64,000 bases of DNA from Candidatus Aquidulcis sp. (GTDB lineage: Bacteria; Chloroflexota; Anaerolineae; UBA4142). A program made the translations under genes and the position numbers. Of this stretch, positions 1 through 3,201 are shown piece after piece (the stretch's first letter is position 1; each line of letters starts with the position of its first letter). Under the pieces are notes generated by a model. It worked only from the letters and a program-made list of their open reading frames with translations. It searched no databases and had not been told where the DNA came from. The DNA lies in assembly GCA_020723345.1 (NCBI GenBank), contig DYJA01000014.1, positions 9,293-73,292 of the forward strand, in the 5' to 3' direction.

Positions 1-874
1 CGACGTACTCCGCCATCAGTTCGACGAGCGAGCGGACGCGGAATGGCAAATCCTCCGCGTACCAATTTGGCGCGTCCCAGACGAGCGACGCGCACGCGTG
101 CCCGCACTCGGCGACGACGACTTCTTGCACGCCGAGCGATTTCGCTTCATCGATGATTCGCTGCGCGATTGTTTTCGCGCGCGCGGTGTCGCCAAGAAAG
201 ACGCCATAGTTCGCGGCTTCATAAATCGAAAGCGTCCAGTCCTCTTTCGCCGCCCAGAAAATCGCGGCAGGCGGCAGAATCGTGTGCGCGCCCGCGAGCG
301 CGACGTACAACACGCGCGCGCCTTGACGCTCGACCGTGATCCGCGCGCGTTCGTCGCCGACCATCGCTTGCAAATCTTTTTCCATTTCGCCGACTTGCTG
401 CACGAACAAGTCTTTGAAAATGCTGGGGTCTTTGCCTTTTTCGATTGCCGCGTCCGCGAGCATCACCAAAATTTCGGGCGCTTTGTCGGTCGCGGTCGCC
501 ATCGCGCGAATCGCGCGCATCATCAGCGGCGTGTCCACACCCATCGGACAATTGAACGTGCAGCGACGACAGAGCGTACATTCGGTGAATGCCATCTCCG
601 CCATTTTTTCAAGCGTCGCTTCGTCAAGTCCTTTGGCGTTGACCCAGTTTGGAAAATGCTTGCCGAAGAAATCGTGCTCGCGGCGATACACCTTGCGCAA
701 TTCTTCCGCGCGATACGCGGGCATGTGTTCGACCGACGGATCGGCGACGTAATAGTGGCACGCTTCCGCGCAGACGCCGCAGCGCGCACACACCTCCAGC
801 GCCGCCATCAACGGGCGATTGATCTGCTTCTCCAGAACCTGGAGCGCGGTCTTGACCGTTGCGTTATCAGCCAC
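1..874 (-). CDS. HdrD/DsrK/GlpC-like (Fe-S)-binding oxidoreductase, N-terminal part only (runs off left edge)
   Basis: Absent from the ORF track (no stop in the window). Hand translation of the minus strand from GTG at 874 (GGAGG upstream) gives VADNATVKTALQVLEKQINRPLMAALEVCARCGVCAEACHYY...TECTLCRRCTFNCPMGV... That is two CxxCxxCxxxC(P) 4Fe-4S motifs and an open frame to position 1. The start overlaps the stop of the upstream membrane gene (GTGGCTGA). Confidence 0.75.
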   Translation of the reverse strand, partial: MADNATVKTALQVLEKQINRPLMAALEVCARCGVCAEACHYYVADPSVEHMPAYRAEELRKVYRREHDFFGKHFPNWVNAKGLDEATLEKMAEMAFTECTLCRRCTFNCPMGVDTPLMMRAIRAMATATDKAPEILVMLADAAIEKGKDPSIFKDLFVQQVGEMEKDLQAMVGDERARITVERQGARVLYVALAGAHTILPPAAIFWAAKEDWTLSIYEAANYGVFLGDTARAKTIAQRIIDEAKSLGVQEVVVAECGHACASLVWDAPNWYAEDLPFRVRSLVELMAEYV

Positions 875-1547
875 GTTTCACCTCCGCGCAGACCCTTCGA
901 CTACGCTCAAAGCGCAGCGCGTGTTCGAACAAGCCGCTCACCACGCCGCGCCGCCCGATGTGAATTCCGAAGAACAATCGTCCGAAGTAAAAGTAGATGC
1001 AATGCCGAATTTTGCCGAACGGCGCGTACGCCAGCATCGCCGCCGCGACGAGCCACATCGCGGGTACGAACGCGGACGAAACGAGCGCGGCGGTCATCGC
1101 GGTGAGGAAAATCGAAACGAGCCAGACCGACGCGTGATCGTCGCGCGTGCTGATCGCTTTGAGATTGTGTTCGACGACGCGCATCACGCCGCCCGCGACG
1201 CCCGTCACCGCGCCCAGCGCGGTCAACGCGGCAACTGCGACGCGAATTTCAAACGCGAGCACGTCGAACCAGGGACTAGCGAGCAGCGCGGCGAGTCCTG
1301 CGAAAATGCCGATGTGAAACGCGATGCCGCGCAGGTACGCGATCGCGTGAATGCGCGTGCTCTCCTTCGCCCACGGCGCCATGCCGAGCGTAAACGCGTA
1401 TAGAATGCCTTTCGCCGCCGAATCTTTTGGAATTGAACGATCCTTTGCGAACGCGAGTTTCTGCATCTGCGCCCAGCGCGACGCAAACACACTCACCGAA
1501 AACACCAGCGCGACCAACGCGAGCGCGCCGGTTACAAGTTGAATCAT
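867..1547 (-). CDS. polytopic membrane protein, candidate NarI/DsrM/HdrE-like cytochrome b subunit
   Basis: ORF 867..1619 trimmed to ATG 1547 (GAGG upstream). The 24 upstream codons read through a heptamer hairpin. It has 5-6 hydrophobic helices with His residues in them (HAIAYLRGIAFHIG, RHCIYFYF). Translationally overlapped with the Fe-S gene. Function is inferred from topology and context only. Confidence 0.6.
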   Translation of the reverse strand: MIQLVTGALALVALVFSVSVFASRWAQMQKLAFAKDRSIPKDSAAKGILYAFTLGMAPWAKESTRIHAIAYLRGIAFHIGIFAGLAALLASPWFDVLAFEIRVAVAALTALGAVTGVAGGVMRVVEHNLKAISTRDDHASVWLVSIFLTAMTAALVSSAFVPAMWLVAAAMLAYAPFGKIRHCIYFYFGRLFFGIHIGRRGVVSGLFEHALRFERSRRVCAEVKRG

Positions 1548-1566
1548 TTTTGTACCTCGGATCGAA

Positions 1567-1634
1567 CGTGATTCGTGATACGTGATGCGTGATGTGTGAT
1601 GTGTGTGATCACGTATCACGCATCACGCATCACG
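1567..1634. repeat. heptamer-array hairpin (CGTGATK x6 / MATCACG x4)
   Basis: cgtgatt cgtgata cgtgatg cgtgatg tgtgatg tgtgtgatcacg tatcacg catcacg catcacg. Fills the spacer between the tusA stop and the membrane-gene start. Confidence 0.9.
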
Positions 1635-1636
1635 CC

Positions 1637-1879
1637 CTATGCGATCTTCTTGACCAGAAAGTGATACTCTTTCCCTTGCTGCTCAATCGCGAGCAATTCG
1701 TTGCCGGTCGTGCGCGCCCACGCGGGAATGTCCGCCATCACGCCGGGGTCGGTCGCGATGCCTTCGATCGTTTGTCCCGCTTGCATTTTCTTGACCGCCA
1801 TCGAAAGTTTGACGACGGGCATCGGGCACAACAAGCCCTTGAGATCGAGCACTTGATCGGGTTTCACTTGGTCAGCCAT
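1637..1879 (-). CDS. tusA: TusA/SirA-family sulfurtransferase
   Basis: ORF 1637..2101 trimmed to MADQVKPDQVLDLKGLLCPMPVVK... (ATG 1879, GGAG upstream). Carries the CPxP active-site motif typical of TusA. 80 aa. Confidence 0.9.
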   Translation of the reverse strand: MADQVKPDQVLDLKGLLCPMPVVKLSMAVKKMQAGQTIEGIATDPGVMADIPAWARTTGNELLAIEQQGKEYHFLVKKIA

Positions 1880-1920
1880 TGTTACTACTCCTCGTTGTAT
1901 TTTTCTCTTGAGAGGCGTGG

Positions 1921-1970
1921 TGCGTGTTCCGTGTTCCGTTCTACGCATCACGCAACACGCAACACGAATC
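1921..1970. repeat. heptamer-array imperfect hairpin (GCGTGTT/CCGTGTT vs ACGCAAC)
   Basis: tgcgtgtt ccgtgtt ccgttct acgcatc acgcaac acgcaac acgaatc. Lies between the DsrE-like stop and the tusA start. Confidence 0.8.
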
Positions 1971-1974
1971 GCAT

Positions 1975-2454
1975 TTAGATGAACAACGTCGCTTTGGAAT
2001 GACTCGCTTCTTCGATGAACGCGGCGACGCCGACGGGCGCGGTGGCGGCGGGCAGCATTTTGTCTGTACCGATTTCGAGCACGTCCATGCTCATCTGGCA
2101 CGGCATAATCTTGACGCCCAGCTCGACTGCCATGTCGCGCAGTTCGTGCAGCGACGCGACGTTCTTTTGCTTCATCATCGTCTTCATCATCCAGCGACCC
2201 ATCCCGCCGAAATTGAAACGCGATGGACCAATCGTGTCGATGCCGCCGCGATTCATCACGCCGAGCATCCGACCGAACAAGCCCTTGCCGGTGAGCGACG
2301 AATCTTTTTGGATCGCTTTGAGTCCCCAGAACGTAAAGAACATTGTCACGTCCATGCCCGACGCCGCCGCGCCGGTCGCGATGATGAACGCTGCCATCAC
2401 CTTGTCCATGTCGCCGCTGAACACAACCATCGAAAGTTTGTTGTCTGTTGCCAT
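1975..2454 (-). CDS. DsrE/DsrF-like (COG2210, YrkE-type) sulfur-relay family protein
   Basis: ORF trimmed to MATDNKLSMVVFSGDMDKVMAAFIIATGAAASGMDVTMFFTFWGL... (ATG 2454, GGAGA upstream). Sequence pattern is typical of DsrE/F-like proteins found next to TusA. Confidence 0.8.
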   Translation of the reverse strand: MATDNKLSMVVFSGDMDKVMAAFIIATGAAASGMDVTMFFTFWGLKAIQKDSSLTGKGLFGRMLGVMNRGGIDTIGPSRFNFGGMGRWMMKTMMKQKNVASLHELRDMAVELGVKIMPCQMSMDVLEIGTDKMLPAATAPVGVAAFIEEASHSKATLFI

Positions 2455-2490
2455 TTCGATTCTCCTTTGAATTTTGATTTCCTTATTCTT

Positions 2491-2518
2491 GTTGGACAAA
2501 TTTACAAATTTGTCCTAC
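2491..2518. repeat. REP-like 28-nt palindrome, GGACAAATTT family
   Basis: gttggacaaatttacaaatttgtcctac. Overlaps the ArsR stop codon. Confidence 0.85.
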
Positions 2519-2847
2519 GCGATTGCTTCTGCCAGCGCGCTCCGCTGCGACAAGTGATCGGCGAGCACCTCACGCAGCAAATCGAGCGCGCGGATGATCC
2601 GCTTGTCGCTGAGCGCGTAGATAATGTTCGCGCCGCGCCGTTCGGGCACGACCATGCCGCGCTCGCGCAAAATTTTCAGATGCCGCGATACCGTCGGCTG
2701 CGGCAATTCTAAAACATCGCCGATTTCCATGACGTTCTTGGGACCTTCCGCGAGCGCGTACAAAATCGTGATGCGTTTCGGATCCGACAGCCCGCCGCAA
2801 ATTTCGGCGTGGAGGTGATTGATTTCTTGAACGAGTTTCTTGTCCAT
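2515..2847 (-). CDS. ArsR/SmtB-family transcriptional regulator
   Basis: MDKKLVQEINHLHAEICGGLSDPKRITILYALAEGPKNVMEIGDVLELPQPTVSRHLKILRERGMV... is a wHTH of ArsR type. First gene of the sulfur-relay operon. Confidence 0.9.
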   Translation of the reverse strand: MDKKLVQEINHLHAEICGGLSDPKRITILYALAEGPKNVMEIGDVLELPQPTVSRHLKILRERGMVVPERRGANIIYALSDKRIIRALDLLREVLADHLSQRSALAEAIA

Positions 2848-2874
2848 CGAGTTTTCTCGCAGTTCTTTATATAC

Positions 2875-2898
2875 GGAAATATGAATATATCCATTTCC
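2875..2898. promoter_or_regulatory. candidate ArsR operator (GGAAAT-N12-ATTTCC)
   Basis: Imperfect inverted repeat ggaaatatgaatatatccatttcc, about 30 nt upstream of the ArsR ATG. Only 6-bp perfect arms. Confidence 0.25.
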
Positions 2899-3201
2899 AA
2901 CTACGAGCATATCGGTCGAGAGTCTTTGTTCTATGCTTCGCAGGTCAAAATCTGGTCAAAATTTTCAGAGACACCATCGAATTGAAAACCTGCTTCGCCA
3001 GTTGGACTCGCCGCACGCCAAAACTGCGCCCGTGCGCGTCTTGATTTTGACTTTTTGTGCTTGCGGGATATACTTGGGAGCGTAAGAGTGTTCCTGGGAA
3101 AATGGCTCTCACCTGGCTTGTCACTGTGAGACAAAGATGACCACGTTCCAGACAGTCCGCAATTCCAACGAATATCAAAAGACTTTATCGGCAATAATTT
3201 T

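Follow-up and report, generated by a model that had tools for sequence, protein, structure and literature searches.

A DsrK-family membrane module paired with TusA and DsrE2 in uncultured anaerobes, a candidate oxidoreductase for carrier-bound sulfur

In the DsrMKJOP complex electrons from menadiol pass over the haems of DsrM to the noncubane cluster of DsrK and from there to the DsrC-trisulfide, with release of sulfide (PMC10861901), and modules of the DsrMK type are usually read as markers of the DsrAB/DsrC pathway. Other carriers are at work elsewhere, DsrE3-type proteins passing sulfur one-way to TusA, and TusA contacting the redox complex in sHdr systems (PMC11094781). At the left end of a 64,000 nucleotide stretch of the Candidatus Aquidulcis sp. 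genome (GenBank assembly GCA_020723345.1, contig DYJA01000014.1; G000:C8:9293-73292 in our numbering; the whole stretch is called the window below) lies an operon, here termed the cassette, in which genes for an ArsR-family regulator, a DsrE2 protein and TusA precede genes for a membrane protein and an Fe-S protein, and in which a separate lineage of DsrMK-type modules is tied to TusA and DsrE2. An earlier note on this DNA had proposed that the two carriers and the membrane module exchange electrons between the quinone pool and a carrier-bound sulfur species, a proposal that family placement, conserved histidines and gene order now support. That the module does redox chemistry on sulfur bound to TusA and DsrE2 we regard as probable; the function, the direction and the quinone link of the enzyme are all matters that we infer.

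Reading of the open reading frames (ORFs) of the 64 kb window gives five genes, all on the minus strand and where the earlier note had placed them: the operon's first gene, for an ArsR/SmtB-family regulator of 110 aa (2515-2847), and then those for a soluble, DsrE2B-type (DrsE_2) sulfur-carrier protein of 159 aa (1975-2454), the 80 aa sulfur-carrier protein TusA (1637-1879), a membrane anchor subunit of 226 aa (867-1547) and an Fe-S protein, of which the 5' two thirds (1-874) precede the point where the gene runs off the window. The contig left of the window was read to complete this last gene, which as a whole spans L009:8826-10166(-), 466 nt of it lying beyond the left edge of the window, and encodes 446 aa. 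The membrane-subunit and Fe-S genes overlap by 8 nt (867-874), and on the sequence the Fe-S gene is translationally coupled to what is apparently the gene of a haem-b-type membrane anchor. The overlap and the two CxxCxxCxxxC motifs described beforehand were both borne out by the ORF and family scans; the wording that an operon is fused to a membrane module holds for adjacent genes and not for a gene fusion.

The Fe-S protein carries its CxxCxxCxxxC motifs at C29/32/35/39 and C99/102/105/109. At full length it matches PF13183 and has the CCG domain that lay beyond reach of the window (PF02754, 1.1e-15, residues 307-395), with the cysteines of the CX(n)CCGX(m)CXXC pattern conserved together with C257. 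It has no signal peptide and therefore is expected to be cytoplasmic. The DsrK model (NF045796) aligns with it end to end (16-419 of 446) at 262.5 bits against a cut-off of 400, as do the models of TmcB (228 bits, cut-off 735) and HmcF (217 bits, cut-off 750), whereas TfrB (90 bits, cut-off 385), LdhH (87 bits, cut-off 800) and GlpC (55 bits, cut-off 278) match its C-terminal half only. Judged by these scores the protein is a member of the DsrK/TmcB/HmcF family and does not group with TfrB, LdhH or GlpC, which answers the earlier doubt whether it might be of GlpC type. It is not DsrK itself, since it lies below the equivalog cut-off and in a separate clade and a true DsrK is encoded elsewhere in the genome.

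Across 14 cassette Fe-S proteins the eight ferredoxin cysteines and C257 (in an ECGH motif), C313, C348, C349, C388 and C391 are invariant, one of them nearly so. True DsrK, TmcB and other membrane-linked relatives have the same cysteine columns and the ECGH motif, and therefore the DsrK cofactor set of two cubane clusters and one noncubane catalytic cluster is expected here also; in a residue comparison with these relatives the cassette clade is set apart by L193 and H197 only. The likeness to DsrMK thus extends to the plan of a two-gene module, a membrane haem-b subunit with a cytoplasmic subunit that has two [4Fe-4S] motifs and a CCG site, and to the expected substrate, sulfur on a small carrier protein. 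Unlike DsrMK, the module keeps company with TusA and DsrE2 and not with DsrC, has no DsrJOP genes beside it and occurs mostly in genomes free of DsrAB/DsrC. HdrDE of Methanosarcina has the same architecture and logic, electrons from a carrier in the membrane being used at a cytoplasmic-side CCG cluster to reduce an S-S bond, although its substrate is the small molecule CoM-S-S-CoB and its electron carrier is methanophenazine.

How the Fe-S protein relates to true DsrK was addressed with a maximum-likelihood tree of 40 sequences, rooted on distant CCG proteins of this genome, in which NCBIfam scores stand in for the HdrD, GlpC and TfrB reference sequences that the tree does not hold. The 14 Fe-S proteins adjoining DsrE2-TusA form a single clade (support 100/99), and true DsrK proteins, adjoining dsrC and dsrAB, form two other clades. 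Sister to the cassette clade (97/96) is a group with a near-cut-off TmcB (731 bits against 735) and several membrane/Fe-S pairs that lack the carriers. TmcBC and HmcEF, of the Tmc and Hmc complexes of sulfate reducers, are accordingly close in kind, the only family matches of the cassette membrane subunit being TmcC and HmcE, although the scores are far below the cut-offs and the cassette has neither a periplasmic cytochrome c nor other Tmc/Hmc subunits. We know of no pairing of Tmc or Hmc with TusA/DsrE2.

The membrane protein gave no Pfam match, PF02665 included, and neither did the copy from a Candidatus Kryptonium metagenome-assembled genome (MAG). Its full-length alignments with TmcC (NF045723; 2.1e-9, 37 bits, cut-off 240) and HmcE (NF045716; 4.6e-6, 26 bits, cut-off 275) amount, at such scores, to resemblance and not membership. 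At the position of the membrane gene four basal cassette loci, and Actinobacteria- and Elusimicrobia-labelled MAGs (L103, L104), have a PF02665 NarI/DsrM protein in its stead, and so the membrane subunit has been exchanged or remodelled within the cassette lineage. The five aligned PF02665-type sequences, four cassette copies and this genome's DsrM, share four invariant histidines. Profile-profile comparison (hhalign) of the two kinds of membrane subunit gave a probability of 94.7% (E 6e-8) and aligned H78 and H182 with the first histidine of helix 2 and the last histidine of helix 5 (H82/H226 of the PF02665-type copies); the distal histidine pair of NarI/DsrM has no counterpart in the alignment. 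By the topology of NarI the haem held by the aligned pair is presumably the one on the cytoplasmic side.

Conservation agrees with this placement in that H78, H182, R123, D137, P176 and K179 are invariant in 22 homologues of the membrane subunit, this genome's DsrM among them. H67 is present in all 9 complete cassette copies of this type of membrane subunit and H196 is not conserved. The membrane subunit may then be a one-haem anchor with a single NarI/DsrM-type histidine pair, H78/H182, plus H67, as against the two pairs of DsrM. The term NarI-like in the earlier note is upheld at the level of a distant superfamily, by the hhalign result and the conserved histidines, and not as regards two haems, only one canonical pair being kept; conserved histidines were looked for and found, as one pair and not two.

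Structure models bring in a further relative. The AlphaFold (AF2) model of the Fe-S subunit (pLDDT 84) has as its best solved match EtfD of M. smegmatis (PDB 9ojn; E 3e-10, TMq 0.60), followed by LutA and HdrB chains, and its CCG domain also matches EtfD by sequence (1.4e-11). For the AF2 model of the membrane subunit (pLDDT 79) the first eight Foldseek matches are all NarI chains, though weak ones (E ~0.03, TM ~0.35); its best superposition is with the membrane portion of EtfD, which stands at rank 17 (TMq 0.56). In EtfD there are five helices, one haem b with menaquinone at 4-5 Å, two cubane clusters and one noncubane cluster (PMC13083937). Unlike the cassette module, EtfD is one fused polypeptide with a long disordered tail and an additional linear [3Fe-4S] cluster, and it works with ETF in beta-oxidation rather than in sulfur chemistry.

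The two carriers are each built around one cysteine. TusA scores 82.8 bits on PF01206 (1.5e-23, cut-off 28.6), and its sole cysteine is C18 of the CPxP motif; G15, L16, C18, P19 and P21 are invariant in 14 cassette copies. The DsrE protein scores 156.6 bits on PF13686 (6.3e-46, cut-off 25) and 83 bits on the DsrE2 model NF047629 (cut-off 210), and C119, its only cysteine, is invariant in 14 copies. Its nearest solved relatives are 2qs7 (2e-19) and 3pnx, the former being named DsrE2B in PMC11094781, and it has no transmembrane helices, unlike Allochromatium DsrE2A. The same carrier families stand side by side, with one active cysteine each, in rhd-tusA-dsrE2 of Allochromatium and in the TusA/DsrE3 relays of sHdr systems (PMC11094781, PMC4175335). 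Those relays feed sulfur oxidation by soluble rDsr or sHdr-LbpA and usually include a rhodanese, in contrast to the cassette, where the partner is a membrane DsrMK-like pair, no rhodanese recurs and the DsrE2B-type carrier is soluble. The YTD cluster (yedE-tusA-dsrE with conserved hypotheticals), which has been proposed as a marker of sulfur disproportionation, likewise joins tusA to a dsrE-family gene in anaerobes, but its hypothetical proteins are not described as haem or Fe-S subunits (PMC12998232, PMC8528874). No YedE/YeeE transporter gene was found in any cassette locus read, and with no YedE gene the cassette was ruled out as a YTD cluster.

In place of sulfane sulfur the carriers could bear thiosulfonate or tetrathionate-derived groups, or selenium, or the CCG module could be a mere electron gate to the quinone pool in the manner of EtfD. 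Archaeal DsrE3A and TusA do carry thiosulfonate (PMC4175335), the TusA of this operon scores 52 bits (cut-off 79) on the model of YedF, a selenium-related protein, and in EtfD, the nearest solved structure, electrons are passed on from ETF to menaquinone (PMC13083937). However, the first CCG-like domain of the cassette Fe-S protein retains C257 alone, so that the extra cluster D1 of EtfD, which takes four cysteines (PMC13083937), is probably not bound, and the catalytic cysteines of the DsrK type are all in place. Nor do genes for ETF, selenium or tetrathionate functions recur at the loci, and we hold both the other cargoes and the plain gate to be highly improbable. A direct look at the contact of carrier and module, by complex prediction of the Fe-S subunit (14-row alignment, three 4Fe-4S) with TusA, gave a score of 0.03 and a mark of 0.32, which speaks neither for nor against binding.

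The gene order is kept well beyond this genome, as the earlier note had suggested should be checked. The closest relative, an Anaerolineales UBA4826 MAG, has the same five genes. Relatives were found in 27 of the 301 Chloroflexota genomes searched, and when their flanks were read ten of the 27, besides this genome, had the order DsrE2-TusA-membrane-Fe-S, with ArsR in front in at least seven. Outside Chloroflexota, where the phylum names are those on the database records of MAGs, the four-gene core stands behind a MerR gene in Candidatus Kryptonium, follows an ArsR gene in the Actinobacteria- and Elusimicrobia-labelled MAGs and is present in an Aminicenantia-labelled MAG. The order was found in 15 further loci in all, under labels of at least five phyla, a recurrence that far exceeds chance. 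The regulator differs between loci, ArsR in most cases read and MerR in Kryptonium, and the core is constant; when all flanks were compared with one another, the cassette proved to have no further recurring neighbour. The Fe-S sequences of Kryptonium and Aminicenantia nest within those of Chloroflexota, and this points, by sequence, to transfer of the cassette between phyla. A single-protein search of genome contigs returned one true relative and Holophagaceae paralogues of 37% identity. Among the 240 best database relatives no cultured host is named, all named hosts being MAGs. For the stretch itself no matching RNA data set was listed, and the one DNA data set with a strong match is a subsurface metagenome from which this DNA may derive.

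Some of these loci have features of their own. In the Aminicenantia MAG the membrane gene was called as two ORFs of 68 and 98 aa (L063:1944-2584) and a tyrosine replaces the cluster ligand C109 in the Fe-S protein, and so this copy is either decaying or affected by assembly errors. Two Fe-S proteins of the sister clade, L085:5623-7332 (G235) and L086:5404-7065 (G211), carry a DsrC-like domain (PF04358) as a C-terminal fusion, and at L085 an ArsR gene follows the fusion. These fusions were considered as evidence for a carrier substrate and set aside, for the fused domain lacks the C-terminal arm and its two functional cysteines. Other sister-clade pairs (L074, L075, L076 and L084, of the phylum of G301) have a receiver domain (PF00072) at the C-terminus of the DsrK-like protein, which suggests phosphorylation control of, or signalling by, the membrane redox module. 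Directly after the cassette of the Actinobacteria-labelled MAG (L103:5338-9034) come genes for a Pyr_redox_2/Pyr_redox_dim/rhodanese fusion, a small FMN_red protein, a redoxin (AhpC-TSA) and a DsbD_TM protein. The first of these has what we take to be the architecture of NADH-dependent persulfide reductases, and the set reads, from its domains, as a neighbourhood for thiol and persulfide handling.

The Aquidulcis genome also has a Dsr system, and the cassette has to be told apart from it. On contig C6 (L071, G000:C6:4000-17662) dsrA (572 bits), dsrB (524 bits), dsrC, dsrM and a true dsrK (524-525 bits) score over or near the cut-offs, which makes this Anaerolineae-type organism a candidate sulfite/sulfate reducer or sulfur oxidiser; a 95-aa ORF after dsrK is the last before the end of the contig. 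Contig C24 (L072, G000:C24:27000-43000) has a third gene of the DsrK/HmcF-like kind (297 bits on DsrK), and after it genes for an Fe-S protein resembling HmcB and a membrane protein resembling HmcC, the latter with a weak C-terminal match to the multihaem cytochrome HmcA, the whole looking like an Hmc-like transmembrane complex. The cassette is on a different contig from the dsr locus and unlinked to it, and is an extra module that coexists with that full locus and is not the organism's DsrMK.

With dsrAB, dsrC, dsrM and dsrK all on contig C6, the cassette might be an accessory to the Dsr pathway, with TusA and DsrE2 feeding DsrC and the DsrMK-like pair serving as a second DsrMK on DsrC-trisulfide. 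Paralogues of dsrMK beside dsr genes are common (PMC6018796), Desulfurella has DsrE-like genes within its dsrABC-MK operon (PMC6378623), and in the genome G044 a related membrane/Fe-S pair lies near dsrAB. That pair belongs to the sister clade and not to the cassette clade, though, and the cassette Fe-S clade stands apart from true DsrK as the cassette does from the dsr locus here. Further, neither DsrA nor DsrC was found in 8 of the 10 other cassette-bearing Chloroflexota (88-100% complete; one in two contigs), both being present in the remaining 2, and no DsrA was found in the UBA4826 genome (G303). A role within the Dsr pathway seems very unlikely on this evidence.

The ArsR protein at the head of the operon (PF01022 HTH_5, 60.6 bits, 1.3e-16; NF033788, 77.2 bits against a cut-off of 55) has a homologue in the equivalent position at 8 other aligned loci, and an HTH_5 gene is found there in L103 and L104. 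Its only cysteine, C17, stands before the (L/M)xDPxR helix, at a position where all 9 aligned homologues have a cysteine; four of the nine carry another one in the last helix, which this protein lacks. Scores on the models of the sulfane-sulfur or sulfite sensors BigR (NF040642; 42 bits, cut-off 155) and TsoR (NF045707; 61 bits, cut-off 115) are below the cut-offs, and full-text literature searches gave nothing relevant on TsoR, the NCBIfam name of this related regulator model. A 20-nt imperfect palindrome, ATATTCATATTTCCGTATAT (2869-2888, minus strand), lies 21 nt upstream of the arsR start codon and agrees at 16 of 20 positions with the perfect palindrome ATATTCGCATTTGCGAATAT that the closest relative (L010) has at the corresponding site; related ATATTC...GAATAT palindromes are found 25-50 nt upstream of arsR in L093 and L090. 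This element is a candidate ArsR operator.

A possible working cycle can be drawn from these parts. DsrE2, through C119, would take sulfane sulfur from low-molecular-weight persulfides or polysulfide and hand it to C18 of TusA; alternatively C119 and C18 might be joined through an intermolecular tri- or polysulfide, and the pair of one-cysteine carriers would take the place of the two-cysteine arm of DsrC. The loaded carrier would dock at the CCG site. Electrons from quinol would pass by one haem b (H78/H182) to the two cubane clusters and on to the noncubane cluster, and at the CCG site the S-S bond would be cleaved, with sulfide leaving and the carrier thiols restored. By way of C17, ArsR would repress the operon at the palindrome over its own promoter and release the DNA once modified by reactive sulfur. 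The cycle might serve the removal or the respiratory use of cytoplasmic sulfane sulfur in anaerobes without DsrAB/DsrC. Cleavage of an S-S bond of TusA/DsrE2-bound sulfur at the CCG site is proposed by analogy with the precedents of DsrMKJOP and of DsrE3/TusA. That the operon as a whole would be a self-contained, inducible two-subunit membrane oxidoreductase of the DsrMK/TmcBC/HmcEF/HdrDE type that acts reductively on TusA/DsrE2 sulfur is, by this analogy, an evenly balanced proposition. The reductive direction taken by itself we put slightly short of even; it is favoured because DsrK does this chemistry, because most loci lack an enzyme taking the sulfur further, and because in the Actinobacteria-labelled MAG the cassette continues with the Pyr_redox/rhodanese fusion, the redoxin and DsbD_TM.

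Several points weigh against the reductive cycle. Reduction of a persulfide (~-200 to -270 mV) by menaquinol (~-74 mV) is uphill under standard conditions, and the reverse is easier. Which carrier docks, and that a mixed bridge forms, we purely infer, and for any member of the cassette reductive sulfur chemistry is argued from sequence and analogy. EtfD shows that such a fold can also do no more than take in electrons from a protein partner, no S-S bond being involved. The regulator has one cysteine, and the known sulfane-sulfur sensors BigR, SqrR and sHdrR have an arrangement of two. The source of the quinone is not plain either, in that the search of this genome, at 95.5% completeness, yielded no MenA, MenB, MqnA/D or MqnC, and MenA or MqnA/D scored above cut-off in only 3 of 12 cassette genomes. 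MenG/UbiE is present in this genome (C7:92108-92767), a UbiA-type gene adjoins MenG in two small cassette genomes, and the Aquidulcis genome encodes several quinone-dependent modules despite these gaps in the menaquinone markers. Since the true DsrMK of this genome needs a quinone, the gap more likely reflects detection or an unrecognised pathway.

The same complex could be run the other way, sulfide and a carrier thiol, or two carrier thiols, being oxidised to a carrier persulfide or bridge with the electrons going to menaquinone, or it could be bidirectional. It would then be a cytoplasmic, protein-bound counterpart of sulfide:quinone oxidoreductase that makes sulfane sulfur for biosynthesis or for further oxidation. 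The evidence from architecture is equal for both directions, TusA is a general sulfur hub for biosynthesis, and oxidation is thermodynamically downhill with menaquinone. DsrMK(JOP) is assumed to operate in this sense in sulfur oxidisers (PMC10504309, PMC13293266). Yet most of the cassette genomes searched lack DsrAB (sHdr was not searched for), and with no sulfur-consuming enzyme at the loci the product would need another sink. The neighbour at the one locus L103 is of reductase type, and stress-type regulators suit removal more than supply. An oxidative or bidirectional enzyme strikes us as unlikely. Returning to the reductive cycle, its most specific form, in which TusA and DsrE2 together are a split, two-protein equivalent of DsrC whose bridged cysteines are reduced by the DsrK-like subunit with electrons from quinol through a one-haem anchor, is quite unlikely.

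The surroundings of the operon delimit it on both sides. A 13-bp hairpin lies 5 nt downstream of the stop codon of the Fe-S gene and is followed by a convergent 3-hydroxyisobutyrate-dehydrogenase-like gene, and the operon therefore ends there. The arsR side is flanked by a divergent glycerophosphodiester phosphodiesterase gene and by an FtsX/MacB-type permease gene. From the two flanks, the convergent dehydrogenase gene and the divergent phosphodiesterase gene, the unit is thus one of five genes and self-contained. Between the phosphodiesterase and permease genes is a 128-aa ORF (4211-4597, minus strand) with no Pfam family.

Within the operon the three larger spacers measure 60, 95 and 89 nt, and each is occupied by a genome-wide palindromic repeat; in relatives free of these repeats, such as the Kryptonium locus L061, spacers are about 20 nt. 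Between arsR and dsrE2 lies a perfect 10-2-10 palindrome, GGACAAATTT-NN-AAATTTGTCC (2494-2515), with 128 copies in the genome (at most 3 mismatches), two more of them in the window (9815-9836 and 32974-32995), some in tandem arrays 47 nt apart (contig C15) and one just upstream of dsrC on contig C6. The number of copies, partly in tandem, rules this palindrome out as a specific operator, and it looks like a REP-like intergenic element. The dsrE2-tusA spacer (1912-1970) and the tusA-membrane spacer (1566-1634) hold one long hairpin each with GTGATGC-like heptamers, and more than 60 similar stretches (75-93% identity, both strands) are spread over the genome. These hairpins are a second family of intergenic palindromic repeats, and enlarge the spacers of the operon compared with its relatives.

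All protein families of the cassette are known, and the orthologous group of DsrK-like proteins, its fixed pairing with TusA/DsrE2 and its independence of DsrAB/DsrC were not found described; a description of the cassette was not found in the full-text literature searched on tusA/dsrE/dsrE2 with dsrK, dsrM, hdrD, TmcB or HmcF. Automatic annotation sometimes names the cassette Fe-S proteins '[DsrC]-trisulfide reductase subunit K', a name that is probably wrong in most cassette genomes and would inflate counts of sulfite reducers. Were the split equivalent of DsrC to hold, many uncultured anaerobes, including Dehalococcoidia-like, Anaerolineae, Kryptonia and Aminicenantia hosts, would have a Dsr-independent, membrane-linked respiration or disposal of zero-valent sulfur that current marker-gene surveys miss. 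If, more generally, the module works between carrier-bound sulfane sulfur and the quinone pool, it would constitute an unrecognised cytoplasmic route for zero-valent sulfur in widespread subsurface and sediment anaerobes, and would offer a four-protein, single-haem model for the cleavage of protein-bound S-S bonds by a noncubane CCG cluster.

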